From IMG/VR virus record IMGVR_UViG_3300042882_000899, positions 32,001 through 96,000 of that record: a stretch of 64,000 nt of DNA; one strand, given 5' to 3'. This document shows positions 9,068 through 44,492 of the stretch, piece by piece (position 1 is the stretch's first letter; the number at the start of each line of letters is the position of its first letter). Source of the DNA: a virus. The notes below the pieces were generated by a model, which was given only the letters and a program-made list of their open reading frames with translations, was not told the DNA's origin and did no database searches. A program made the translations under genes and the position numbers.

Positions 9068-9412
9068 TTAGAATGAATCCAAGTCCATTATGTATTTACT
9101 ATCTCTTACTCTTGTTTCTTCAAGGGATTGGATTGTTAGGTTTCTATCCACCGCCCCGTATTTTGCTTCCAGGATGTCATTGAGAGCATCTGCCATAAGC
9201 AATCCTTCGGATGTGTATCCTTTATCCCATTCTGACTTTAATCTAAGGGAATTGTATTGGATAATGTATCTAACTAGTTCCATTAGCCTGTCTTGGGTAT
9301 ACAAGGTATGTTCAGTTGTTAATACATTTGCCATTACAGCAGGTGAGAAGTTAGCATTATTTAGATAGTCTGTTAGTTTTTCTGCCGCTTTGAATTCGTT
9401 TGCTTTAGCCAT
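9068..9412 (-). CDS. hypothetical early protein
   Basis: ORF track; own promoter and AACGAAAGG leader. Confidence 0.8.
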   Translation of the reverse strand: MAKANEFKAAEKLTDYLNNANFSPAVMANVLTTEHTLYTQDRLMELVRYIIQYNSLRLKSEWDKGYTSEGLLMADALNDILEAKYGAVDRNLTIQSLEETRVRDSKYIMDLDSF

Positions 9413-9467
9413 TGAGTTCCGCCTTTCGTTTTGATTATACCATTGACCACTGACATTTGTAAATGAA

Positions 9468-9498
9468 GGGGGACCCGCCTCAGCAGAGGCAGGTCCCC
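9468..9498 (-). terminator. GC-rich hairpin after the Lsr2-like gene
   Basis: GGGGACCTGCCTC-TGCT-GAGGCGGGTCCCC on the minus strand; weak U-tract. Confidence 0.55.
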
Positions 9499-9509
9499 AC
9501 AGTTAGTTG

Positions 9510-9662
9510 TTACTTGACGTTCTTCTTGTCTGTGAAGACTACGCCTTCTTGTGCTGCCTTGCTGATAGCTCCTAGAGCTGCTGCTGAAAAGCGACCACGC
9601 TTGCCTACAGAAATGCCCTGGGTCTTTAGGTACTCACGAGTTGTTGTTGGTGTTGATGTCAT
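9510..9662 (-). CDS. Lsr2 DNA-binding-domain-only protein (50 aa)
   Basis: Not in the ORF track. MTSTPTTTREYLKTQGISVGKRGRFSAAALGAISKA... resembles the Lsr2 C-domain (IREWA..NG..VS.RGRI); AGAAAGGA SD; TTTACA-N17-TATAAT promoter. Confidence 0.7.
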   Translation of the reverse strand: MTSTPTTTREYLKTQGISVGKRGRFSAAALGAISKAAQEGVVFTDKKNVK

Positions 9663-9812
9663 TTAGTTTGATCCTTTCTAGATCGAGTTGTTATATATAT
9701 TATATCCGAATTTCGGGGATTTGTAAATAGAGTCGTAAAGCAATATTTTTGCCCGTCTCCCTTAGATTGATGACCGTTATGTCCGAATTGTCCATAACGG
9801 TCCAACCTATCT

Positions 9813-9998
9813 TTATTTAGTTGTTACTTCTAGTTCTACTACATTGTATGGCTCAATCAGGTCATCAGTTGGAATCTCAGTCCAGCCCTCTGCAGGAATC
9901 CTAAGCGCTGACTCCCATGCAAGGTCGTGAGACTCTGCGTTAATGATTACATAAAACTCTTGCTTGCGGTCACCATAGATTTTATAGTCTTGTCTCAT
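9813..9998 (-). CDS. hypothetical early protein
   Basis: ORF track; coupled within the operon. Confidence 0.65.
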   Translation of the reverse strand: MRQDYKIYGDRKQEFYVIINAESHDLAWESALRIPAEGWTEIPTDDLIEPYNVVELEVTTK

Positions 9999-10124
9999 AG
10001 TCCCACCTGTTCTACCCTATCTTTAATTAGTTTAGCAATGATGTTATGGGCCTCGATGTTTTCAGTTTCGCTGCCACCCCATAGCAAAGCTTGGGCCTTG
10101 CTAAGTTGATCGTTTAAGTATTCA

Positions 10125-10439
10125 TCACTCATCTTCATCTTCGTCTTCTTCCTCTTCCCACTCAGGGTCAGTAATGTAGTCACGATTCAACATCCACTCT
10201 AGGACATCGTCTTGGTGCTGTTCTGCACCGTATTCCAAGGAAAAGCCTTGTCCAGCCTCCACAGCCTCGCACAGGTGGTTCCACATGTCATCTTGGGTAA
10301 CCTTAGCATTGTAGTTCTCATCATCTAAGATGTTATTAATAGTTGACCATGTCCATAGCCAAACAAGCGATAGGCCAAGGTCGGTGCTGTCTAGAATCTC
10401 TAAACACTTGTTTAGTTTATCTTTATCTTCAGGCTTCAT
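10125..10439 (-). CDS. hypothetical early protein, acidic tail
   Basis: ORF track. Confidence 0.75.
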   Translation of the reverse strand: MKPEDKDKLNKCLEILDSTDLGLSLVWLWTWSTINNILDDENYNAKVTQDDMWNHLCEAVEAGQGFSLEYGAEQHQDDVLEWMLNRDYITDPEWEEEEDEDEDE

Positions 10440-10725
10440 TCAATGGCTCCGAATCTATTCTCTCTTGAATTGCAAATGAGAGTTGATATGTTAGTTGATA
10501 CAGGTCAACTAGCATGTCGAGTCGTCCTTCACACTCTGTACGGACCATAGAGTCCATTGCCTCTTCGGACCTTTCTTCTTGTGCTAATGCCTCTGATAGG
10601 TCTTGCTCAGCAATTAGCATTAGATTCTTTAGTTCACCATGCAAGATATCAAGGCCTGATACTCCAGCATTAACCATGCGTTGCAAATGGGGCGGGAGCC
10701 CAATGTCTTCTGCAGTCATATTCAT
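10429..10725 (-). CDS. hypothetical early protein
   Basis: ORF track; AACGAAAGG leader. Confidence 0.75.
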   Translation of the reverse strand: MNMTAEDIGLPPHLQRMVNAGVSGLDILHGELKNLMLIAEQDLSEALAQEERSEEAMDSMVRTECEGRLDMLVDLYQLTYQLSFAIQERIDSEPLNEA

Positions 10726-10931
10726 TAATATACCCTTTCGTTATCAAGCATTATATCAGTTGCCACTGACAAAATATGTTCCATAGTATCAATTGCTCCT
10801 GTGTAATATGCATCTGATTCAAAGTACTCATCTTCATTTAAAGGTATGTTATTTCTAGCATCCTCTAAATCTTGTTCTAAACTAATCTTATGTATCTTTA
10901 GATATTCCATAAAATGTGATGACCTAGTCAA
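10725..10931 (-). CDS. hypothetical early protein (contains embedded promoter)
   Basis: ORF track; GGAGG SD. Confidence 0.65.
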   Translation of the reverse strand: MTRSSHFMEYLKIHKISLEQDLEDARNNIPLNEDEYFESDAYYTGAIDTMEHILSVATDIMLDNERVY

Positions 10932-11097
10932 AATAACCCTCCGCCCATAGTCCCTGGAGAAAACTAACTGTCATCTCCAAATCATTTCTAAGTTGTGTCT
11001 TGTCCATTAAATCGGACGGGGATCGAAGATAGAATAACTTAGCATCATGTACTGAGTTAATCATAGTATCTAAATCTTTTTTCTCATATCCTAACAT
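10924..11097 (-). CDS. hypothetical early protein (57 aa, MLGYEKKD...LWAEGYFD)
   Basis: Manual translation; fills the gap between coupled ORFs. Confidence 0.6.
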   Translation of the reverse strand: MLGYEKKDLDTMINSVHDAKLFYLRSPSDLMDKTQLRNDLEMTVSFLQGLWAEGYFD

Positions 11098-11309
11098 CAT
11101 AAGCAGAACTCATCTCCTTCAATATATCCATAGTATTCATTGTATGATTGTTTTAAGTTATCAGGTGCAAATTGCATAAACTTAAATTCTGCATAATCTG
11201 TACCTTCATCTAAATTAGCATTGTTCCATTGCTCAAATAGATGTTGCTCAATATCTACTTGAATTGCTCCAAGAAGATGTTCTCCTACTGTATCTGTAAA
11301 TGCTTCCAT
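11097..11309 (-). CDS. hypothetical early protein
   Basis: ORF track. Confidence 0.7.
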   Translation of the reverse strand: MEAFTDTVGEHLLGAIQVDIEQHLFEQWNNANLDEGTDYAEFKFMQFAPDNLKQSYNEYYGYIEGDEFCL

Positions 11310-12043
11310 TATGCTTCCGCCTTTCTATATTCAGGAACTTTGGTTTCTAAGTATACACTATGGGTCTGACATTCTTTAACAGCCTCTAGGTCTGCCTCGC
11401 CAAGCCAGTTGCAAGCACCGCAGATTTCTCCACATTCATTCTCGCAGTATTCCATTTGATTAGTTGCATCACAATCACGGCACATGTTATCATATTCTGA
11501 TTCTGAGATAACTTCACCACGGAGGAATTCCATTTCCCCACCCCAACCTGTTTCTTCTTCATATGATAAAGTAAATAGTAGTGTTGGGTATTGTGCAGAT
11601 AGTTTAGAGATAGCACCAAGAGGCCGTGACCATGCAGTATTAAAGTTATAATGAACTACATAGTTCTCGCCATTCTCGGCTTCCTCGATAGTTGTATCAG
11701 GATACTTGTCATCTTCTGATACAGCAACATCCCACTTAGTACCCCACTCACGAACATTAAAGTTGTACCAGTCATTGGTCTCAAACTTCATTGCCTGAGA
11801 AAAGTCGGTGGAACGAGGAGGTTGTCCATGATATACCTCATCAGTAATACCAGCATCCTTATATGAATAGATATTATGAAAAGCAAAGATAGGATTAACA
11901 TACTTAGTCTGCTTGACATCATATGATAAATCACCTACAGGTGTAATAGAATAAACAAATGGCTTATTCATCTGCTTGATTAGATTTTTAACTTGCTCAG
12001 GATTACCTTCAATAGTTAATCCATTAAATACCCAGTTTGGCAT
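11309..12043 (-). CDS. DUF1281/Api92-like ferredoxin-fold protein with C-terminal Cys cluster
   Basis: MPNW..N.L, WY......WGTKWD, F.TAWS.P, L.YEE.G motifs. Confidence 0.7.
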   Translation of the reverse strand: MPNWVFNGLTIEGNPEQVKNLIKQMNKPFVYSITPVGDLSYDVKQTKYVNPIFAFHNIYSYKDAGITDEVYHGQPPRSTDFSQAMKFETNDWYNFNVREWGTKWDVAVSEDDKYPDTTIEEAENGENYVVHYNFNTAWSRPLGAISKLSAQYPTLLFTLSYEEETGWGGEMEFLRGEVISESEYDNMCRDCDATNQMEYCENECGEICGACNWLGEADLEAVKECQTHSVYLETKVPEYRKAEA

Positions 12044-12267
12044 TTTATATCCTTTCGTTGATATGTTCCTATTATATATTAGACCACTGACAAATGTCTA
12101 TATGATATGGGTCACAAACGATAATTTGACCCCTCCAAATTAGTGTTTACACTTCTATATGTAAATCAATATAGATGTGTAAGCTTTGTGGTCAAGATCA
12201 TAGCAAATTCCAGGGAATATAATTGACAGTCGTAACGACAATATGCTACCCTCATGTCTTTGCGGGC

Positions 12268-12297
12268 AAAGAAAAACCCCCCAGCTAGTGGGGGGTC
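12268..12297 (-). terminator. intrinsic terminator
   Basis: ACCCCCCA-CTAGC-TGGGGGGT followed by TTTTCTTT. Confidence 0.85.
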
Positions 12298-12416
12298 TTG
12301 AATAATGGCTGCCTGGATTTCCAACGAAAGAAATAAACCCGCTTTACTTAGCGCCTGGCCATTGAGACTGATAGACGCACCATTATATTTCCTATTAAAA
12401 CCAGGACCTTAGTCCT
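12268..12416 (-). ncRNA. putative structured sRNA antisense to the early-gene AACGAAAG leader
   Basis: -10 TATAAT at 12428-12423, intrinsic terminator at 12268-12297, nested stems, loop AUUUCUUUCGUUGG. Confidence 0.65.
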
Positions 12417-12423
12417 AGTCTAA

Positions 12424-12789
12424 TTATACCATAACTAGTCGACTGTATTTGTCTACGAATGCCGCCAAGGATAGACTGAATACAACCGTGCTCATATCTT
12501 CCTCGTACAGTGTAAACGTTTGAGAGGCCCAGTTAATTACAGGCACCTTGTGTTCGTTGTCCCCTAGTTGATTTACGTAGAGCCCCCATGATAATGTTTG
12601 ATTCCAGTCTTCTCCAATTAAATGAGAGATTGCAATACGTGTTGCATATGATGGGTCCTGCCAACGTGTCTCTGCAGCGCTAACAGCATTTGCCAGTTTG
12701 GCTAGCATGTCGTGGCCTGCCCAGTGCCCGTATAAAAATATTGTATCGCCTTTTTGGTCTTTAAACCCAAAGTTTGCTCTGTCGCCCAT
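12424..12789 (-). CDS. conserved-looking phage protein (MGDRA...YLY.HW.G type)
   Basis: ORF track. Confidence 0.8.
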   Translation of the reverse strand: MGDRANFGFKDQKGDTIFLYGHWAGHDMLAKLANAVSAAETRWQDPSYATRIAISHLIGEDWNQTLSWGLYVNQLGDNEHKVPVINWASQTFTLYEEDMSTVVFSLSLAAFVDKYSRLVMV

Positions 12790-12790
12790 A

Positions 12791-13000
12791 TTATTCCGCC
12801 GTTTCTAAAGTAGGTACTGCTTCTTCTATTTTGTTTAATTCTATCACTTCGTATGCGACCTTGTCAAGGCCACGCTTGCTTGCATTGTAGTGGTGACCGC
12901 AAAAGAACAGTTCACCTTCTACTAGTTTAACTAAGTACATTGCTTGAGCTGTGTTACATTGATCACATGCTATCCATCTTGTTAGATCTTCCGTTGTCAT
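12791..13000 (-). CDS. small Zn-binding protein (CxxC...FCGHH)
   Basis: CDQC...A...L.FCGHH motif. Confidence 0.75.
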   Translation of the reverse strand: MTTEDLTRWIACDQCNTAQAMYLVKLVEGELFFCGHHYNASKRGLDKVAYEVIELNKIEEAVPTLETAE

Positions 13001-13152
13001 AGTTTTCCTCCTTCGATCATCTCAGATAGACGGTCAAGGATCCAGGAATCAATGTCGTTGATATCAATCTCTGACAACTTTTCCATGATCTCTTCACGAG
13101 CAAACTTATATCCATCTGCCCAGCCATCTTTATATTCTGACATAATCTCTCC

Positions 13153-13356
13153 TTAGTAACCTGTTGTTTCGTAGTCTGATATGTATGATTCAGTTAAGTT
13201 GTACTTATCACGCAGACGACTTACTTTCTCAATACTACCAGTTCCAATGTTGAATGTCAATGGAGCCATTCTCTGCGGGTCGAGTCCGTTGATTTCTGCA
13301 TCCCAATAGGCCCTCTCCATGGAGAGCCTATTAGGAGCGGTGAGTTCAAAATACAT
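13153..13356 (-). CDS. hypothetical early protein
   Basis: ORF track; GGGAGG SD. Confidence 0.7.
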   Translation of the reverse strand: MYFELTAPNRLSMERAYWDAEINGLDPQRMAPLTFNIGTGSIEKVSRLRDKYNLTESYISDYETTGY

Positions 13357-14012
13357 TATGCCTCCCTAACGTTGCAAACTTCGGTGTCATCAATTGTGAT
13401 GTTTCCGTCATTTGATTCAGCATATAATGAATCTGTTATAACTGACTCAAGGTCGTACTCTGAATAATCTGATAGAACATCATATGAATATGTTCCAGTA
13501 ACTTCTACAGATGCAGTAAACTGAACTTCCTTGATAAGTTCGATACCAAGCGCTTCAGCAATGTCACGCAATGTATCTTGGTCTTGTGAATCTGCATATG
13601 CCTCGCAGATGATTTCCTTGACTGCATCAATCTTAGATTGAATAGAACTTAAAGTCTTCTGCGATTGACGGGCATTGTGAAGGTCCCATTCAATACTGGT
13701 AACCTTATCTGTAATGTACTCAGGATTAGAATAACCGTTAATCTTTTTATATGTTACTAATAGATTAGAGTTATATGTATCTGGTACCAAGTGCTCTGTT
13801 GTTTCCATTTTTTCCTCTTTCGTTTGGGTTAAGGGTGTAATTGTAGCATGCTCCACTGACAATAATGTAGTCTTACGCCCGCATGGGCATGTGAGTTCTG
13901 TCACACCTGAAGGAAAGCCAAATCCATCAGATGATGTAAGTTCAATTAAACAATCGCAATGCTCAGGATCACATGCGAATGTGTATTTACTTGATATGAG
14001 TTCGTTGGTCAT
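13356..14012 (-). CDS. early protein with two in-frame starts (MTNELI.. at 14012; METTEH.. at 13808)
   Basis: Each start has its own TGTCAG-N10 promoter. Confidence 0.65.
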   Translation of the reverse strand: MTNELISSKYTFACDPEHCDCLIELTSSDGFGFPSGVTELTCPCGRKTTLLSVEHATITPLTQTKEEKMETTEHLVPDTYNSNLLVTYKKINGYSNPEYITDKVTSIEWDLHNARQSQKTLSSIQSKIDAVKEIICEAYADSQDQDTLRDIAEALGIELIKEVQFTASVEVTGTYSYDVLSDYSEYDLESVITDSLYAESNDGNITIDDTEVCNVREA

Positions 14013-14113
14013 GAAGAGAATTATACACCAGGCCACTGACATTTACAATAGATTCCAGGGAATATTTGTGTGAGTCGTAACACACTTTTTGCCCCCTTAG
14101 CTTTGAGGGCGCT

Positions 14114-14190
14114 TGGCGATCCATATCGGACTTGAACCGACGGCCTCTACCGTGACAGGGTAGCGCTCTAACCAACTGAGCTAATGGACC
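14114..14190 (-). tRNA. tRNA-Asp(GTC)
   Basis: GGTCCATTAGCTCAGTTGGTTAGAGC..CTACC-CTGTCAC-GGTAG..GTTCAAGTC..CCA. Confidence 0.95.
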
Positions 14191-14201
14191 AAGAAAAATT
14201 G

Positions 14202-14229
14202 TGAGCAGTTTTTAATCATGCTCAGGATT
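14202..14229 (-). other. putative H-type RNA pseudoknot, copy 1
   Basis: AATC-CTGAGCAT-GATT-AAAAAC-TGCTCA. Confidence 0.55.
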
Positions 14230-14236
14230 TTATTTA

Positions 14237-15244
14237 TTAAAACGCAGAAACTAATTTTTTAATTTTATTTTTTTCTGCGGTTAGAATTGGGTCAAAGCCT
14301 GATGCACCAGCCATAAGTGTTTCAGAATTGCCACGACCTGAACGATAATAGTCAAGGCGTTCAGTAAGTGCATTGAAAGCACCCCACTTTGTACCCTTGA
14401 TGTTAGCGTTAGTTGGTGAGTTATGATAAAGGTCATCAAGCAAAACGACTTTATTCTCCCACTTAGTTAGCGCAACTTTAGCAGCATCCTTATCTGGCTT
14501 AGGATAAATTGTCTGAATCAACTTTGAGAATTCTGCATCAGTAATTGATTGAGAATAAAGTGCTTGCGCTTCCTTCTCAAATTCATCAAAGTATCCAAGA
14601 GCAAGACCAAGAGTCTCACGAGCAACTTGGATGCGACCTTCAACAGATTGCGTGTGGCGAATCTTAAATGATTGCTTTGCATTACGCATTGCAAGATTAA
14701 GAGTGTTTTGGCATACTACACGAACAGGGGTAACAGCAGCCTGAACAGCCACAGACCCGTCATGAGATGTCCATACGATTAGATACAACTTAGTTGCATC
14801 ATTTGCGCCTTGTGGGTCAAGCACCATTGTGCGAGGAATGTCCACAGTACCAAATACAACTTTACCGCTACGCAATGAGCCAGCAGACTCCCAGCGACAG
14901 TCAGCGTTTGCATCATGAATTGCATCAGCAAATGCAAATAGTTCCTCATTCTGCACAGGCTTGTAACGCTTGCCAACAGTGGCAAGAACATCAGTACCCT
15001 GATTGAATGGGTTATCACGAATAACTAACTGAGCATTTGATACATCATTCCATGTATCGGAGATGTGGTCAGTTAGTGGAGATAGACGAACATTCCAATT
15101 GGAAAGTTTTGCCTCATCCAACATCATTTGAGTTGTAACATCCTCATCTTGTGTAAAGATGCGATTTGCGAGATTGTGCCATGCAGGTGCGCCACGCAAT
15201 GCAAAAGCAACTTGACCATTTTCGGTTTCTAGATTATGAGCCAT
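14237..15244 (-). CDS. DUF932 / phage-plasmid protein (TIGR03299-like)
   Basis: MAH......AWH.L, Y.PVQN, SAGSL..G, SHDGS......TPVRVVC.NTL, RHT, T.WGAFNA.TE..D. Confidence 0.85.
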   Translation of the reverse strand: MAHNLETENGQVAFALRGAPAWHNLANRIFTQDEDVTTQMMLDEAKLSNWNVRLSPLTDHISDTWNDVSNAQLVIRDNPFNQGTDVLATVGKRYKPVQNEELFAFADAIHDANADCRWESAGSLRSGKVVFGTVDIPRTMVLDPQGANDATKLYLIVWTSHDGSVAVQAAVTPVRVVCQNTLNLAMRNAKQSFKIRHTQSVEGRIQVARETLGLALGYFDEFEKEAQALYSQSITDAEFSKLIQTIYPKPDKDAAKVALTKWENKVVLLDDLYHNSPTNANIKGTKWGAFNALTERLDYYRSGRGNSETLMAGASGFDPILTAEKNKIKKLVSAF

Positions 15245-15444
15245 TTATTTTTTACCTTTCGTTTGATTAGTTGTAAGTATAACAGAACCCACTGACAAAT
15301 ACTAGTCTAGTTACATTATGTCTCATTATGTGGGATGTGATCAATCTCACAAAATTCCAGGGATATCCACAGGCAGTCGTAACCCTGTGGATAACCCCTC
15401 AGATTTACGGGCCAGCTGCAGAGAATGCAGCCAGTGTTAGATCT

Positions 15445-15699
15445 TTAAAGACCTAACTCATCCCTAGTTAATTTATTTGTTCTCCCATAATTAATAACTT
15501 CGGACGGGAGGTAAAGAGCAGTAGTCTTAGTCTTCTTCAATGTATCATACACATAAGCACGTACATCACCAAAGAAGTTACGTCGATTAGAAAATGCTAA
15601 CTCAGTTAAGTATTCTTTATCTACGCCTTGCTCTGAATAAATTGTTAAATCATTTAACTTATTTGCGTCATAAATTTCTACACGAAATCTATTTTTCAT
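15445..15699 (-). CDS. hypothetical early protein
   Basis: ORF track; AAAGG SD. Confidence 0.75.
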   Translation of the reverse strand: MKNRFRVEIYDANKLNDLTIYSEQGVDKEYLTELAFSNRRNFFGDVRAYVYDTLKKTKTTALYLPSEVINYGRTNKLTRDELGL

Positions 15700-15734
15700 T
15701 TTGTTACCTTTGTTAGTGGTTGTCCCCGAAGGGA

Positions 15735-15761
15735 GAGCAGTTTGGCGACATACTCAGGTCG
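15735..15761 (-). other. putative H-type RNA pseudoknot, copy 2
   Basis: CGAC-CTGAGTAT-GTCG-CCAAAC-TGCTC, followed by a CUUCGG hairpin. Confidence 0.55.
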
Positions 15762-15770
15762 TTGGATTGT

Positions 15771-16187
15771 TTAGAGATACTTAGCAATTTGCTTCATTGT
15801 AGAAGCATTTACTGTTTCCTCATCTGTCATCTTGAGAATTGTGAGAGCATTTGTGATGTCCTCTTTCATTTCCTTATACTGCCATTGTTGTATAGTCTCA
15901 AAGTCCTTCTCAGGCTCAGCAGGGAAATCGCTTTCGCCTGTTGTGATGTCAAAATCAACATTGAGAGTTTTGTTCCATTGACGATAGTTTGTGCGAAGGT
16001 TCTCAGCCTTTGAGAAGCGGTCAATAGCCCACTTTCCAATTTCCTTCTGCCACTTTTCATAAGCCTTCTTATACTTTGCTTCGTTGGCTTCTTGTGAGGC
16101 ATAGTTCTTTTCTATTTCTGCTAGACGAGTCTCTAGTGCCTTGATTACCTTTGGTGTTGCCACCTTTACTGTGATTGCTCTACTCAT
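15771..16187 (-). CDS. hypothetical early protein (helical)
   Basis: ORF track; promoter and AACGAAAGG leader. Confidence 0.85.
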   Translation of the reverse strand: MSRAITVKVATPKVIKALETRLAEIEKNYASQEANEAKYKKAYEKWQKEIGKWAIDRFSKAENLRTNYRQWNKTLNVDFDITTGESDFPAEPEKDFETIQQWQYKEMKEDITNALTILKMTDEETVNASTMKQIAKYL

Positions 16188-16273
16188 TGTTATTACCTTT
16201 CGTTGGTTGTTTAGTTTGTTTGAGTATTATAGCAGGGGGGTCTGACATTTCTGCGACCCCCCATGCCGTTAGA

Positions 16274-16456
16274 TTATACGCCTAGTAGGGTTTGAGCAGA
16301 TACCGAAGTCCAACGAGTTTCCTTGTTGGGCATTTCTAGTAGCACACGCACCGAGCCAGATGTTTGTGGGTGGATTTCCTTAATCACACCTGTTTTCTTT
16401 GACTTGAGAGTGGTGAATAAATCGCCCACCTGATACAACTTGTCGTTGATTGTCAT
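16274..16456 (-). CDS. small SH3/KOW-like protein
   Basis: YQVGD.......TGVIKEI.....VRVLL. Confidence 0.7.
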   Translation of the reverse strand: MTINDKLYQVGDLFTTLKSKKTGVIKEIHPQTSGSVRVLLEMPNKETRWTSVSAQTLLGV

Positions 16457-16697
16457 TTATTGCCTCTTTTCTTTGTTAGGTTGGTAATTATAGCATTGGG
16501 GTCTGACATTAGTCTAGCCCTATCTCACTATGTGAGAAAGTTATTGTGTGATAAAAATCACAAGTATTCGGTTAGATCGCCATCCATGATCTCATTTAGC
16601 TCTAAGCCTTCTGAGTCTGCGATTGCTTCCCATAGATCCATTTCATTAAAGTCTCCATCAGGATGTCTCTCTGATAAGATAGAATAAAGATTATTCA

Positions 16698-16964
16698 TTA
16701 GTAATCCTCCTCTGGTAGCCAAGCGTCTAAGTGGTGTTGTTCAGCAATTGCCCAAGCGGGTGCTGTTGTTCTATCTTTGTATTTCACGCCTTCAGGAAGT
16801 GCTATTGGTGCATCGTATTCTCCCGCATGGATAGCATCAATGGCATCAATGCAGGGTTGCACCATAGAAAGTGGGACGGGTGGGTAATGATTACCCTGTA
16901 AGTGATAGCCTAGTGCTACCTCTAAATCTAATTCAGTTAAATCTAATGCTGTGTTGTATCCCAT
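16698..16964 (-). CDS. hypothetical early protein (HL..NHYPPVP motif)
   Basis: ORF track. Confidence 0.8.
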   Translation of the reverse strand: MGYNTALDLTELDLEVALGYHLQGNHYPPVPLSMVQPCIDAIDAIHAGEYDAPIALPEGVKYKDRTTAPAWAIAEQHHLDAWLPEEDY

Positions 16965-17171
16965 TTATTCTGCCACCTTTAGAATAGCCCATGAGCCACC
17001 CTTGTTAATTTCATCTAGTGCAGGCTTAAGTGTTGGTGCAATAAGTGTTTTTAGCATTCCTTCTAGCATAAGTATTTGGTCTGACTTATCAAGTGCAAGT
17101 AGCATAGCACCTGTTGGATTAGTTTCATCAACTTCAGTTATGAAGCGGAGAGCGTGTTCGATAGTTATCAT
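16965..17171 (-). CDS. hypothetical early protein
   Basis: ORF track; promoter and leader. Confidence 0.75.
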   Translation of the reverse strand: MITIEHALRFITEVDETNPTGAMLLALDKSDQILMLEGMLKTLIAPTLKPALDEINKGGSWAILKVAE

Positions 17172-17454
17172 TTTTTGCCTTTCGTTGTTGGTATAAGAGT
17201 ATTATAGCGTAGGCCACTGACAAATTGTGCAACACTCCCAAGATTAATCTAATTTATTTTGTGATTAATCTCACAAATTTCAGGGGGTTGTGGATAACGC
17301 CCGTAAGCCTGTGGATAACCCCGCAGTATTGCGGGCTTCCCGCAGCTTTTATTGATCAAATTTATTTTTATGTTTTATTTTGCGTGTGTATTTTTTTTTA
17401 TTACGAACAGGTTGCGCCGCATTACTGCGGCGCAATTCCTGAATTCGTTTTACT

Positions 17455-17646
17455 TTATCTCGAAGTGAATTTTGGAACATTGTATCCACTCGCTTCGTGA
17501 AATCGTTTTACATCAAATCGCTCATTATCTTTAGCAAACATTTCAGCGAAATCATTTACCATTTTAGAAAAAACAGCGGGGTGAGTTTTATCGCTAGCAT
17601 ACTTTAGAATTTCTGCGGTTGCGACATAATCTTTGCGTGTCATCAT
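17455..17646 (-). CDS. hypothetical early protein (TRKDY...DN.RFD..RF)
   Basis: ORF track. Confidence 0.75.
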   Translation of the reverse strand: MMTRKDYVATAEILKYASDKTHPAVFSKMVNDFAEMFAKDNERFDVKRFHEASGYNVPKFTSR

Positions 17647-17849
17647 TTTACTACGACCCTTCTGCCTTCACGATAAAAAACTTTTGTGTGGCATTTGCCA
17701 GTTGGCGTGTAAAGATTTACAGTTGCGTATTCATCAGCAAATCCCCAATCGGTAAAGCGGAAAAAGTTTTCCCACGCACCAAATTCGTTTTCGTATTCTG
17801 CCGACCAATGCGGAGCATTTGAGTCATAGGCGCAAGTTAGTTTATACAT
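17643..17849 (-). CDS. hypothetical early protein (start MYKLTC)
   Basis: GGAG SD before the ATG at 17849. Confidence 0.65.
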   Translation of the reverse strand: MYKLTCAYDSNAPHWSAEYENEFGAWENFFRFTDWGFADEYATVNLYTPTGKCHTKVFYREGRRVVVK

Positions 17850-17974
17850 TAGTTGTTCTCCAATTCTTTTACACAATCGCATTGTTCGCAATCATAGTCA
17901 TTATCATTACCAAAAAAGATTACTCCGTATCCGTGGCAATCTATACAATCTATTCTTATTAGTGAGTTTATCAT
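17849..17974 (-). CDS. small Cys-rich peptide (41 aa)
   Basis: Manual translation MINSLIRIDCIDCHGYG...CEQCDC; promoter and leader. Confidence 0.6.
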   Translation of the reverse strand: MINSLIRIDCIDCHGYGVIFFGNDNDYDCEQCDCVKELENN

Positions 17975-18026
17975 TTAGTTTTCCTTTCGTTTTGTTATTG
18001 CTTATTATAGCCTAAGCCACTGACAT

Positions 18027-18170
18027 TTATTCGGCTTCGGGGGTGGTGAATAAGGCTCCCTCGTTGAGTAGCCCTACCTCAATGTTAAACAGTTCATCAG
18101 GGGTGGCTTCGGATAAATCTACCCAGCCCGCACCATTTTGATCAATTCTAAAAATCTCAATGTATCCCAT
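18027..18170 (-). CDS. small early protein (47 aa)
   Basis: Manual translation MGYIEIFRIDQNGAGW...; GAGG SD. Confidence 0.6.
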   Translation of the reverse strand: MGYIEIFRIDQNGAGWVDLSEATPDELFNIEVGLLNEGALFTTPEAE

Positions 18171-18334
18171 TAGTGTTGTTCCTCGCAATCTTTGTCATAG
18201 TCAAATCCGCAAAAGTAGCAACCCATAAACTCTAGGTGCTCTATACAGTAATACTTAAATTGACTTTCATCACAGCAAAAATGTTGCTCGTCTGCGATTT
18301 CATAGAAATCGGTTTTGTCGATTATGTTTAGCAT
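18170..18334 (-). CDS. small Cys-rich early protein (54 aa)
   Basis: Manual translation; promoter and leader. Confidence 0.6.
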   Translation of the reverse strand: MLNIIDKTDFYEIADEQHFCCDESQFKYYCIEHLEFMGCYFCGFDYDKDCEEQH

Positions 18335-18387
18335 TAGTTTTCCTTTCGTTTGCTTATTTAGTTATTGTACCGCAAGGGTCTGACAAA

Positions 18388-18600
18388 TTAGTCAGACACC
18401 TTGACGGCTAAATAGCGGTATGTATCTTTTAGATTTAGCGGGGCTGAATAATGAGGTCGAACCTGAACCTTGTATGTATCACAATTCGCATACCATACAT
18501 CATCATTTTTTTCCGCTGAGATAATTTCACCCTTTAGAGTTTTTGAGTGATAAGTTTTTCCTACAAGTAGGCTTTCGATAGAATAGACATTTGCTGACAT
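18388..18600 (-). CDS. hypothetical early protein (start MSANVY)
   Basis: AACGAAAGG leader before the ATG at 18600. Confidence 0.7.
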   Translation of the reverse strand: MSANVYSIESLLVGKTYHSKTLKGEIISAEKNDDVWYANCDTYKVQVRPHYSAPLNLKDTYRYLAVKVSD

Positions 18601-18925
18601 TTGAGTCCGCCTTTCGTTTGTTGATAGTAGCAATTATAGCCTATCCCACTGACATTTTCTAATTACTAGCGAGTAATTCCAAATAATGAGACGCTCAAGT
18701 CATGTGATAAAAATCACAAAATCTCGGGCGTGTCGCAAATTCCAGGGGTTGTGGATAACTCCCGTAACCCTGTGGATAACCCCGCTCTTTTGCGGGCGCA
18801 TCAACTTTTGTCAAGTCGACACGCCGTTACTTATTTAAAATCTTTAAAAATTTCCTCAAGCTTTAAGATTTGCTCATCTGTTAAATGATCAATTTCAATT
18901 GCTTTTTCAAATCCAAAAAAATCTG

Positions 18926-19141
18926 TCATTCGCTCATCAACCTTTCTAAATCGTCTGCGTTATCTTTCATGTAATTATCTTGAAAATCTAGTAACGCCTC
19001 ATTGTAAGCAATTGGGTCACAATCTTTTAAGATTTGGGAGGGATAGAAAACAGCGTTACCCATTTCATAGACGGGATAACAATCATCAAGCATTTCATCA
19101 AATAATTGTTTAATCGCAAAAGTAATTTCGAAATCTAGCAT
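18926..19141 (-). CDS. hypothetical early protein
   Basis: ORF track; AAGG SD. Confidence 0.7.
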   Translation of the reverse strand: MLDFEITFAIKQLFDEMLDDCYPVYEMGNAVFYPSQILKDCDPIAYNEALLDFQDNYMKDNADDLERLMSE

Positions 19142-19298
19142 TAGTTAGTTTCCTTATCTTTTAGAATGTTAAGAATAATTTGTAATTGTTCAACAGAAAG
19201 AAGTGCTTGAGCACAACCCCATGTAAATGCTAAATCCATTTCTTGATAATGTTTTTTAGCAAGTGTATTTATTTCTTGCGTTAATTCGAAATTAGTTT

Positions 19299-19475
19299 TC
19301 ATTTAGATACATACCAATCTGTCCACATAGGAAGTTGCTCAGGGTCACTATCATAGTAGTAACGCTCAATGTTTTGTTCACAATCCATACAGAAAGTGTA
19401 TTGCTCATCTCCGATTTCTGAGATAGCGGATTTCATAGGGTTATGTTCTTTACATAGCGTGTTTAGTGTAGTCAT
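19299..19475 (-). CDS. small Zn-finger-like early protein (start MTTLNT)
   Basis: AGAAAGG SD; C..H and CxxC. Confidence 0.65.
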   Translation of the reverse strand: MTTLNTLCKEHNPMKSAISEIGDEQYTFCMDCEQNIERYYYDSDPEQLPMWTDWYVSK

Positions 19476-19979
19476 TTGAGACCACCTTTCTTTTTGTTTG
19501 TATGTCGCTATTGTAGCAGGGGGGTCTGACATTTTGACCTGTTTCTCGGGCGTGTCGCAAAACTATTTTTGTGATAAAAATCACATAAATCCTGGGGTTT
19601 TCCACAGATGCCCGTAAGCCTGTGGATAACTCCCGCAAGTACTTGCGGGCCAGCTTGATAATGTCAAGCCGACACGCCGTTAGGCTAGTGTGACTCTTGC
19701 CACAATTCACGCATCTCTGCCATGAAGTCATGGTAGGCGATCCTCGCCATGTATAGGGCGGGAATAGCAATGGCTAATTGTACTAGTGTAGTAAGTAGTC
19801 TATTCATAGTGTAGCAACCGCCTTTATGTCCATTACATTAGCAGTAAACTTTTTACTCTTTCCTAATTCGCTCTCATTAAGAGCATTGATTAGATTATCA
19901 ATAGCCTTTACATCATGAGCAACATTATCGATTGAGATTAGTTTAGAGCCTTGCCAAATTGAGTAAGTGATAGTCATTA

Positions 19980-20168
19980 TTAGTTCTCCCATGTTAGTGC
20001 GTATAGTTTTGCTAGTGCTTCATCATCTTCATCATCAAAGTCATCAAAGTCAAGCGCTGGCGCTTCATCTAGTTCATCATCAAGGTGACGATAGGCGTCT
20101 GATACATCTGATTGGATAGTGTCCCACTTAGAGACGGAATTATTTTCGTATGAGTATGCGTATGACAT
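19980..20168 (-). CDS. small acidic early protein
   Basis: ORF track; D-rich C-terminus. Confidence 0.65.
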   Translation of the reverse strand: MSYAYSYENNSVSKWDTIQSDVSDAYRHLDDELDEAPALDFDDFDDEDDEALAKLYALTWEN

Positions 20169-20805
20169 TATTTATTCATCTCCTTAGCGATAGCCTCTGA
20201 CTTAGTTAGTGCCTCTAGGGCGATTGCTAGGGAGGCAAGGCGTTGCGCCTCTACCATTTGCTTGTATTCATCTAGGTTCATTTATGACCTTCTTTCGTTG
20301 TTGTTATTCTGTAATTGTAGCGTATGGGTCTGACAAATTGGGGAGGTTGGCTAGTGTGTCGGTGTGATACTAGTCACACTCTCCACATGGGCATTGAGGA
20401 AACTCTCGCTCTTGCTTTATGCGGTTAGCGAGTCGCTCTACCTTTAGGTATGTATCAGCGGAGGCACCTCGGAAAGATACTACCTTTCCTTCAGCGATAA
20501 GGTGAGCAGCCTTAGCAATCTTTTGCTCTAGTGTTAGTGAAGTCATTATTTAACTTCCTTTCTTTTTGTTATACCTTAAGCATAGCATGGGGGACTGACA
20601 AATTGACGCAAATCTCGGGCGTGTCGCAAAAAAACCTTTGTGATTAGCATCACACTCACGCTCAAGGCTCAAATAATTATGGGCGCACTATCCAAAATGT
20701 CCGTTTTGTCTAGGATGTGTATCATACATGTAAAAAATATATTAACATTTTTAGAAATCCTAAAAAGCAGTCGACTGGAATATAATGCGGTGGTACAATA
20801 GAAAC

Positions 20806-42728: not shown

Positions 42729-44492
42729 ATGTCATATTACCTTTCTGCCATTAAAGACTTCCCAATAGGACTATGGAAGTTAGATGAATCATCTGGCTCA
42801 GTAGCCTATGATATTTCTGGGTGCGGAAATAATGGATTGTACGTCGGTCAAATATCTAAATCTGGCATGCCAATTGTATCTGGTGGCACACACTCTAATA
42901 AAATAGATAGTTTAAATTATGTGCAATTCAACCTGTCAAAAGATTTTTCTGGAACTATTGGCACAGGAGGATTTGCAACAGATTCAACATACGATAATGA
43001 CTTTACATTAGAAGCATGGATACACCCCAAAACATTAACTGCACTAACTCCAATACTGGCAGACTCTAGTGGCATAGGATTATATTGGGATAAAGGAAAT
43101 GCTGTATTTAAATTAGAAAATGAACGAATTGATTATTCAGTAATAAACCCAAACAGAGTTATTCACCTTGTTGGAATATATTCAGTTAACTCAATGAGCT
43201 TATATGTTGATGGCGCTTTGGTAGCATCCAAACCTGTATCTATTAAGTTTACAAATACTAGCGTAACATTATCTTCTGGGCCATGTGCATCTGGAGAGCA
43301 TTTTATAATTGATTGTCCAGCCGTATACAGATATTCGTTGTCGGAAAGATCAATCCTTTCGCATTATAATAATTTATTTCTTAATAATGACGAGCAAGTT
43401 TCTGTTCCAGAGTTAGGAGAATTATTTAGGGCGGGAGAAAGATATCAAAGCGTAGAAACAAAATATGTATACCCAGCTCAAGTTTCGTGGGACACTCTTA
43501 TATATGACAATGAAAATCTTTCTTACAACAAAAATAATAATAGTGTTTATTTAAATTCAGGATTTACATCTGGTGAATTTATTGAGGATATGGTTCTAAA
43601 TGTTACTAAAGACTACATGTCGTCAAAAATTGATTGGGTTTCTTCTAATGGCGTATCAATATATGTTTCTGAATCTTCAGAAAATGGACCATGGGTTTTG
43701 TGTACAAATGGATCTTCTATCCCAGGATTTACGCAAGGATCTGCTTTTTCTAATTCAAAAGTTTTATATTTTAAAGTTCTATTTCAGTCCACAAATTCAG
43801 ATGTATATATCCCAGAACTATACTCATTAAAAATTTATTTCTATTCTGAAAAAAAGATGTTTGCACATAATGGTGGTGGCTTTCTTGCAACATCACAACC
43901 TGCAACAGGATCTATATGGGACATTGACATAGCAAATGAACCTTATCAGGTCAGGCTAAGAAGTAGCACAAACGGAATAAGACCAAAATCCTCAGCTTTC
44001 TTTGTTAACTCTTTAAATGAAAATCGTAATATCGAAATGATATTTACTCCAAAATCTCTATCCAGTGGTCACCTAATGTTTAATAAAACGGGATCAGTTG
44101 AGACGGCATTATCTTGGGCGGCAGGCGGAGCAATAGCAAAATCTAACATTAGCAATATATATATTAATGGCCAAGATGCCTCATCCGCTACCAACATATC
44201 ATCATATTTATATATAGATGAGCCTAACTATATATTAATAAAAACCTCTAGTGCTATTAGTGGAGAAATTTGGTTTAATGGCAAGCAGCTTCTAGGAGTA
44301 AGATCAGGCGTATTGGATGATAATTTATACCAAAACTTAGCCTTGTACACAAATCCATCAATTAGTCACCAGGAGCATTATGACTTATATATTGGCAAAC
44401 CTGCTTCTATTGCTGAAGGATCGTCGATGGCAATGACAGAAGAGTCCGTATCCACATATTCTAGAGACAGAGTAGTGCTTCAAATCATATAG
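42729..44492 (+). CDS. LamG/concanavalin A-like virion protein
   Basis: P.G.W.LDE.SG..A.D.SG, FTLEAWI, HLVG.Y, LYVDG. Confidence 0.8.
   Translation: MSYYLSAIKDFPIGLWKLDESSGSVAYDISGCGNNGLYVGQISKSGMPIVSGGTHSNKIDSLNYVQFNLSKDFSGTIGTGGFATDSTYDNDFTLEAWIHPKTLTALTPILADSSGIGLYWDKGNAVFKLENERIDYSVINPNRVIHLVGIYSVNSMSLYVDGALVASKPVSIKFTNTSVTLSSGPCASGEHFIIDCPAVYRYSLSERSILSHYNNLFLNNDEQVSVPELGELFRAGERYQSVETKYVYPAQVSWDTLIYDNENLSYNKNNNSVYLNSGFTSGEFIEDMVLNVTKDYMSSKIDWVSSNGVSIYVSESSENGPWVLCTNGSSIPGFTQGSAFSNSKVLYFKVLFQSTNSDVYIPELYSLKIYFYSEKKMFAHNGGGFLATSQPATGSIWDIDIANEPYQVRLRSSTNGIRPKSSAFFVNSLNENRNIEMIFTPKSLSSGHLMFNKTGSVETALSWAAGGAIAKSNISNIYINGQDASSATNISSYLYIDEPNYILIKTSSAISGEIWFNGKQLLGVRSGVLDDNLYQNLALYTNPSISHQEHYDLYIGKPASIAEGSSMAMTEESVSTYSRDRVVLQII

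Follow-up and report, generated by a model that had tools for sequence, protein, structure and literature searches.

Which regulator reads the repeated promoters in front of a block of small genes in an uncultured phage? We addressed this question for IMG/VR virus record IMGVR_UViG_3300042882_000899 (114,960 bp; 37.5% GC; CheckV completeness 96%), of which bases 32001-96000 form the 64,000-nucleotide stretch analysed here (the window, to which positions refer unless stated otherwise). The element in question is a TGTCAG box followed, after 10 nt, by a −10 hexamer of the form TAnnnT. We propose, at a probability of roughly 60%, that its 16 copies are PafBC-dependent promoters ('RecA-NDp', or sigma-adaptation, promoters) carried by a phage that lacks the activator. 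On this evidence the phage is probably plugged into the DNA-damage switch of its host.

We found TGTCAG-N10-TAnnnT 16 times in the window without mismatch, always on the minus strand and within 9434-20600, against a chance expectation of 0.56 (100 dinucleotide shuffles; largest count, 4). The rest of the genome holds no further match on either strand, the reversed-pattern control likewise gives zero, and no further site emerges in the block when spacings of 9-11 nt are allowed. A one-mismatch search yields a single plausible extra, degenerate site (17065-17086). The first-pass annotation of this DNA had listed 15 minus-strand copies; all 15 coordinates are correct, but the site at 11350-11371 had been missed. 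Its remark that the structural region is free of copies holds for the whole genome. By their tails, the sites divide into nine copies of TGTCAGTGG (TGG tail), six of TGTCAGACC (ACC tail) and one of TGTCAGTCC (TCC tail). As had been claimed, each copy lies just upstream of an open reading frame (ORF): an ATG-initiated ORF starts 7-40 nt past the −10 at 16/16 sites. At 15 of them the start codon follows a short leader with a conserved AACGAAAGG-type Shine-Dalgarno (SD) sequence, the exception being the leaderless start behind 14020. Two sites had been placed inside coding sequence, which is an undercount: upstream ORFs contain those at 10750, 11350 and 13840, and 14020 falls within a spurious N-terminal extension of the leaderless gene.

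What known promoter does this arrangement resemble? The PafBC consensus derived from chromatin immunoprecipitation sequencing, tGTCgg(N10)tA(N3)T, spans 22 nt; its 3′ part is the SigA −10, it has no −35, and its 5′ part, the '−26 element', occupies −23..−28, where R46 and R50 of PafB read the G's of the invariant GTC (PMC8635444). PafBC is thereby placed between the DNA and sigma region 4, an arrangement termed 'sigma adaptation' (PMC8635444). The protein is constitutively present at a level unchanged by stress (PMC6789036) and is activated when single-stranded DNA (ssDNA) binds its WYL domains (PMC11804915). With TATAAT placed at −12..−7, the phage TGTCAG sits at −28..−23; the invariant GTC element is found at 16/16 phage sites, at exactly 10 nt from TAnnnT and with no −35 consensus. 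The absence of a canonical −35, noted at first pass, is borne out by a logo of 1178 unique sites from the phage and its relatives, in which the −35 positions carry <0.2 bit; a hexamer matching at 4/6 positions occurs by chance in 5/16 sites. The same TGTC(A/G)G-10 nt-TAnnnT geometry, at −28..−23 and without a −35, defines the PafBC-dependent (RecA-NDp, recA P1-type) promoters of Mycobacterium and other Actinobacteria (PMC8635444, PMC11804915, PMC6789036). Transcription there starts ~7 nt past the −10, as is predicted for the phage from its leaderless gene. Agreement with the published consensus in both sequence and spacing (PMC8635444) supports placing the phage sites in this class, as was first suggested from the motif itself. 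Unlike host promoters of the class, the phage copies number 16 in 11 kb, precede small genes of unknown function instead of repair genes, have a near-consensus and often extended −10, and lack a LexA box.

We then asked whether these sites behave as promoters across related phages. More than 270 IMG/VR contigs encode the DUF932 protein of the block at an identity of at least 92%, and the motif is repeated on one strand of every such contig fetched, with 12-18 copies in those that include most of the block. When the 16 contexts were aligned with orthologous stretches from 200 related loci, 308 non-identical contexts resulted. In these, TGTCAG is 98-100% conserved, the first two −10 bases (T, A) 99-100% and the G of the extended −10 93%, while the spacer and both flanks are conserved at 53-90%. 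The 1178-site logo reads wwwTGTCAG(T/A)(GG/CC)-n4-(T)GnTAtaaT. Arrays of 9-16 sites, each on one strand, recur in the phages L074, L079, L053, L067 and L087, whose DUF932 is only ~50% identical or which have no detectable protein in common with the present phage. The array is kept in L074 and L079, whose DUF932 is only ~50% identical, and in L053, which has no detectable shared protein. That box and −10 are conserved while the flanks drift, and that the array is kept in distant phages, marks the sites as promoters that a second, sequence-specific factor reads at about −26; the same pattern indicates that the sites are under purifying selection. Several distant relatives have a leaderless ATG 6-7 nt past the −10, which would place the predicted transcription start as at PafBC promoters. 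Orientation, start-codon distance, the near-perfect and often extended −10, the leaderless ATGs and the conservation footprint together support the identification of all 16 sites as promoters.

This footprint also bears on an explanation in which the sites are ordinary extended −10 SigA promoters and TGTCAG is an operator for a phage- or host-coded repressor, like the stoperators of mycobacteriophage L5. Stoperators are asymmetric, co-oriented repressor sites that are not known to be tied to a −10. The phage sites are likewise asymmetric and co-oriented, three lie within coding sequence, and the extended −10 TGn is frequent (~60-75% of sites; G 74% and T 62% in the logo, with the 93% conservation of the G given above). 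Yet the distance to the −10 is exactly 10 nt at 16/16 sites and at >1100 sites of relatives, as for a promoter element, and the box is the same as the recA activator site in every actinobacterium examined (PMC8635444). Neither a repressor-like helix-turn-helix (HTH) protein nor an integrase is among the matches listed for the proteins scanned. We consider a repressor operator very unlikely.

The block also stands apart from the rest of the genome in its expression signals. Its leaders (9400-20580) share a leader and SD of the type CAACGAAAGG, whereas genes outside it have AGGAG/GGAGG SD sequences. Promoters elsewhere are canonical TTGACA-N17-TATAAT or plain extended −10 promoters, again with AGGAG-type SD sequences. 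These differences mark the block as a separate regulon.

Who, then, reads the box? The phage genome contains no WYL domain, no PafB/PafC-like sequence and no sigma region 2, which makes host PafBC the most economical candidate for reading the phage promoters. There are no LexA boxes in the block, and neither an integrase nor an HTH regulator is among the 25 strongest families listed for 84 further proteins (families weaker than E 2e-6 lie outside this listing). A weak r4_2-like stretch in a 46-aa ORF was dismissed as a sigma factor (E 0.003, below cut-off). A mimic activator encoded by the phage, which the first-pass annotation had offered as an alternative, has no WYL, PafB/C or sigma gene behind it.

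A wider version of that idea is that a phage-specific WhiB, or some unrecognised small DNA-binding protein, reads TGTCAG. The block would then form a 'middle' class like that of T4 MotA/AsiA, its likeness to PafBC boxes being mimicry or coincidence. Several features fit: the subfamily of the phage WhiB is confined to phages and has a conserved basic NxHKT tail, WhiB proteins dock on SigA region 4, most phage proteins are without a known family, and activator-independent promoters elsewhere in the genome could supply such a factor first. Besides the missing WYL, PafB/C-like and sigma sequences, however, the 9-nt TGTCAGTGG is identical to the recA box of the candidate host lineage described below and lies at the same distance from the −10, so host PafBC would bind these sites with or without a phage factor. 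Nor is any candidate factor conserved along with the motif in the distant motif-bearing lineages examined, which share only two small acidic proteins and DUF932 with the phage. We judge a phage-encoded reader rather unlikely. As sole explanations, a phage reader and a repressor operator are both disfavoured, since the 10-nt register is fixed, box and −10 are equally conserved and the box is identical with that of host recA.

For host PafBC to act, the host must carry it, and we therefore turned to the likely host. The phage encodes a WhiB protein (PF02467, 45 bits, above cut-off), and whiB is a marker for freshwater actinophages (PMC10202952; 10.1101/670067). A 587-aa protein (42729-44492) has cultured kin only among Streptomyces phages (123/123 records; ~130 kb, Stanwilliamsviridae). 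WhiB and the Lsr2-like protein of the block are hallmarks of actinobacteria, and together with this kinship they place the host among the actinobacteria. The exact host is probably a low-GC freshwater actinobacterium such as acI/Nanopelagicales, 'freshwater' being deduced from the low GC and the whiB literature. WYL proteins occur in 398/401 sampled Actinomycetes genomes, a tally that includes ten unpublished genomes used for no other claim (G009, G017, G026, G032, G034, G038, G045, G265, G306 and G375). For the candidate lineage, chosen as the best fit to a low-GC actinophage, we took 22 complete single-contig genomes of 1.3-1.5 Mb with one AcI-852 probe target each, a target absent from Mycobacterium, Microbacterium and Corynebacterium controls. 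The target of the 23S probe HGC69a served to pick actinobacterial genomes, and through the AcI-852 target, that of an acI FISH probe, we read the 22 genomes as acI/Nanopelagicales.

In 22/22 acI genomes, recA has exactly one upstream TGTC[AG]G-N10-TAnnnT, on the recA strand and with a LexA box after the −10; the box is TGTCAGTGG in 16/22 and TGTCAGCCC in two. The known recA promoter of the Mycobacterium control has TTGTCGGTGG. In the acI genomes examined, the motif is also found before carD, before a leaderless gene for a DEDDh exonuclease and before a gene for a dnaE2-like polymerase, the last again with a LexA box. Each of the 22 has two or three WYL genes, in tandem in five of the five checked. 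In G219, the one acI genome compared, the tandem WYL genes match M. smegmatis PafB (7p5x_AY, E 8e-34) and PafC (7p5x_AX, E 2e-26) over their full length, and the GTC-reading arginine segment RMFERDK of PafB is intact. The first-pass annotation had named pafBC in the host clade as a check on its proposal; the acI candidate lineage has PafB/PafC orthologues (G219) as well as the motif at recA, dnaE2 and the exonuclease gene. By these comparisons, an actinobacterial lineage that has PafBC marks its damage genes with a promoter code identical, base for base, to the phage motif.

Counted over whole acI genomes, the bare pattern does not clearly exceed its reversed control. The informative feature is placement: in G142, 10/11 motif matches lie directly before a gene start. 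Two acI genomes hold an island of ~30 kb with 6-9 TGTCAG-N10-TAnnnT sites (L379+L380, G142:C1:436001-470000; L381-L383, G235:C1:384001-428000). The island promoters are mostly leaderless (start codon 6-7 nt past the −10) and precede genes for a C5 DNA methylase, TPR proteins, a trypsin-like peptidase, an OGG-like glycosylase and unknown products. From its gene content and promoters, the island looks like a PafBC-controlled flexible or defence island.

An island of that kind, dense in the same promoters, lends some colour to a further explanation, in which the phage array is mainly a decoy. Each genome copy would bring 16 strong PafBC sites, and replication would multiply them until PafBC is titrated away from the damage and defence genes that it drives in the host, with transcription of the block secondary. 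The literature also lends this some support, since PafBC and other WYL regulators have been linked to phage resistance (PMC12848934; PMC9122601). A pure decoy, however, needs neither a −10 nor a gene, whereas every phage site is coupled to a good −10, an SD sequence and an ORF, and the −10 is as conserved as the box, which argues that transcription was selected for. As the main function of the array, a decoy has only a very slim chance of being correct. As an additional role it is compatible with PafBC-dependent transcription, and the two are not exclusive.

Several observations weigh against reading the array as a PafBC regulon in an acI-like host. An extended −10, present at the frequency given above, can work without a −35 or an activator in actinobacteria, and the promoters may therefore have PafBC-independent activity. 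The tail deviates from the consensus gtg at 7/16 sites, which read TGTCAG(A/T)CC; acI recA and dnaE2 promoters likewise show CCC, TCC and ACC tail variants. Phage GC is 37.5%, compared with 43-52% in the acI stretches sampled. A nucleotide comparison of 20 kb of the phage with 29 actinobacterial genomes, made for a host link, returned tRNA-like matches only. Of the phage proteins compared with acI loci, matches were confined to RecA, DnaE and a subtilase (28-37% identity), which indicates no recent exchange, and a search of the phage WhiB against genome contigs for a host found nothing. Finally, in four Stanwilliamsviridae (L390-L393: Blueeyedbeauty, Comrade, Annadreamy and Kenrey) the motif occurs 0-1 times per 126-130 kb, as often as the reversed-pattern control. 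These Streptomyces phages of ~130 kb, the only ones in culture in which a homologue of the 587-aa protein was detected (~25% identity), resemble the present phage in genome size and actinobacterial host. Lacking the motif, they were rejected as a laboratory proxy, which leaves no laboratory system at hand. Their control-level counts also indicate that the array is a trait of the uncultured low-GC group and does not stem from wider kinship or from large actinophages generally.

How might PafBC-dependent promoters serve the phage? The −10, often TGnTATAAT, would be read by the housekeeping RNA polymerase-SigA holoenzyme of the host. The host PafB-PafC heterodimer, constitutively made, would be switched on by ssDNA at its WYL domains, read TGTCAG at −28..−23 and bridge to sigma region 4 instead of a −35 contact. 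The block of ~35 small genes (Lsr2-like, DUF932 and others) would then be turned on once ssDNA appears in the infected cell, whether this ssDNA stems from the incoming genome, is produced by phage replication or recombination, or results from damage to host DNA, for instance by ultraviolet light. The phage has its own RecA, SSB, DnaB, DnaG, DnaE and PD-(D/E)XK nuclease, and so would make and handle ssDNA itself. Because they are without the LexA boxes found at host recA and dnaE2, the phage promoters would answer to PafBC alone. PafBC binding of the sites, the trigger, the timing and the exact host are all points that we infer.

An 'early' timing of the block is plausible, given that its genes are tiny and unknown, that one encodes an Lsr2-like nucleoid protein and that strong promoters are many. 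The block could equally be delayed-early, or coupled to replication through ssDNA from replication or recombination: canonical promoters elsewhere in the genome need no activator and could fire first. We tentatively suggest a further step, which we hold to be possible though doubtful, whereby a lytic phage and its host have a promoter code in common, and the PafBC boxes of the phage use the pre-made ssDNA alarm of the host as an on-switch for takeover genes once single strands are exposed by phage DNA or its replication, while competing for the activator with host repair and island (possibly defence) genes. If true, sigma adaptation would here run a phage regulon for the first time, with an infection alarm turned into a phage start signal.

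Comparison with known systems indicates a new use of a known promoter class. Middle promoters of T4, with a MotA box at −30 and a −10, likewise have a non-canonical upstream box that replaces the −35 and is read through an adaptor at sigma region 4. The parallel between sigma adaptation and the 'sigma appropriation' of MotA/AsiA has been drawn before (PMC8635444). T4, however, brings its own adaptor proteins and remodels sigma, whereas in the present phage we detected no adaptor (WYL, PafB/C and sigma homologues are all absent), and it appears to use that of the host; it may encode an adaptor of unrecognisable sequence.

Phage genes can also be coupled to the SOS response: prophage induction under LexA or RecA control proceeds by relief of repression, through cleavage of LexA or CI, and usually concerns temperate phages. 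The coupling of phage expression to host DNA-damage sensing is shared. Here, by contrast, positive activation by a WYL-domain ssDNA sensor would provide the coupling, there are no LexA boxes in the block, and no integrase is among the families listed.

Our literature search found no paper that combines PafBC with actinophage promoters; the link between PafBC and phages is confined there to resistance on the host side. In bacteria, PafBC and related WYL proteins are known to sense ssDNA and to induce repair, as well as defence against phages in several systems. If our proposal is true, a virus hijacks an alarm activator, instead of a repressor such as LexA or an adaptor of its own such as MotA/AsiA. 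The phage group concerned is widespread and abundant, as the IMG/VR contigs attest, and keeps a gene block behind PafBC-type promoters with no activator of its own. Its arrays also offer a compact set of natural promoter variants for the sigma-adaptation mechanism. The host survey extends the PafBC regulon to genome-streamlined freshwater actinobacteria, including the promoter-dense acI island.

Within the whole genome, genes run rightward over 0-41 kb, leftward from 52.6 to 41 kb (the motif block) and then rightward again, this right part comprising a class II ribonucleotide reductase and structural genes. The left arm (0-41 kb) encodes a truncated DnaE, RecA, SSB, a DnaB-like helicase, a DnaG-type primase and WhiB, together with many 2-oxoglutarate-Fe(II) oxygenases, a thioredoxin, two AhpC/TSA proteins, Cpn10, Hsp20 and a PD-(D/E)XK nuclease. 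Phage RecA (L010:2282-3286) is ~35% identical to bacterial RecA. The subfamily of the phage WhiB (L011:3852-4202; genome 23852-24202) was seen only on phage-sized contigs, all WhiB homologues being phage-family proteins. It has a conserved, basic C-terminal tail, G-x-x-D-x-x-x-N-x-HKT, which is not known from cellular WhiBs.

The motif block itself (9068-20600, minus strand) comprises ~35 mostly small genes and a tRNA-Asp gene (14114-14190). It is transcribed leftward from a divergent region at 20.6-20.8 kb and the motif is confined to it; a megablast search of GenBank phages with the block gave no match. Recognised families are DUF932 (14237-15244), DUF1281_C (11309-12043), Lsr2-like (9510-9662) and DUF7455, the remaining genes being without a known family. 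The Lsr2-like protein (minus strand, 50 aa) consists of little beyond an Lsr2-type DNA-binding domain (phrog_6269, E 1.5e-7; Pfam Lsr2_DNA-bd weak).

Following transcription from right to left, and giving in brackets the distance from −10 to ATG and the ORF, all on the minus strand, the block opens with the TGTCAGTCC promoter at 20579-20600 (−10 TATGCT; 32 nt; 20370-20546, 58 aa). Two TGTCAGACC promoters with the −10 TACAAT follow, at 20314-20335 (32 nt; 20168-20281, 37 aa) and 19510-19531 (34 nt; 19299-19475, 58 aa). The site at 18633-18654 is TGTCAGTGG with TATAAT (32 nt; 18388-18600, 70 aa), and that at 18364-18385 is TGTCAGACC with TACAAT (29 nt; 18170-18334, 54 aa). Next come two TGTCAGTGG promoters with TATAAT, at 18004-18025 (29 nt; 17849-17974, 41 aa) and 17201-17222 (29 nt; 16965-17171, 68 aa). 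The possible degenerate site at 17065-17086, AGTCAGACC with TATGCT, has one mismatch and lies outside the count of 16. Beyond it are two TGTCAGACC promoters with TATAAT, at 16487-16508 (30 nt; 16274-16456, 60 aa) and 16226-16247 (38 nt; 15771-16187, 138 aa). The DUF932 gene (14237-15244, 335 aa) starts 31 nt past the −10 (TATACT) of the TGTCAGTGG site at 15276-15297.

The gene at 13356-14012 has two promoters and two in-frame starts. The first promoter, TGTCAGTGG with TATAAT at 14020-14041, leads to the leaderless ATG at 14012, 7 nt past the −10 (218 aa). The second, TGTCAGTGG with TACAAT at 13840-13861, lies inside this gene; behind it come an SD sequence and an in-frame ATG at 13808, from which a 150-aa isoform (13356-13808) would be made. 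Further left, the TGTCAGTGG site at 12071-12092 (TATAAT; 27 nt) precedes the DUF1281_C gene (11309-12043, 244 aa), in whose 3′ end lies the TGTCAGACC site at 11350-11371 (TATACT; 40 nt; 11097-11309, 70 aa). The last two promoters are TGTCAGTGG with TATAAT, at 10750-10771 (24 nt; 10429-10725, 98 aa) and 9434-9455 (21 nt; 9068-9412, 114 aa), the latter directly after a strong terminator hairpin (9498-9469).

Further repeats accompany some of these promoters. Four CRP/GlxR-like palindromes, TGTGA-N6-TCACA, occupy minus-strand intergenic positions (15336-15351, 17260-17275, 18703-18718 and 19570-19585). They are centred 73.5-74.5 nt (three) or 84.5 nt (one) upstream of the predicted PafBC-type start, a class-I-like spacing on one helix face. 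Just upstream of these sites lie members of a 47-nt repeat family with paired TGTGGATAAC motifs, the complement of the DnaA box TTATCCACA (15352-15398, 17276-17322, 18737-18783 and 19587-19633). An exact 17-mer, TTGCGACACGCCCGAGA, occurs three times on the minus strand (18722-18738, 19544-19560 and 20613-20629; 0.01 expected). It lies upstream of the TGTCAG box by 12 nt at 19544 and 20613 and by 67 nt at 18722, and may be an operator for a further regulator.

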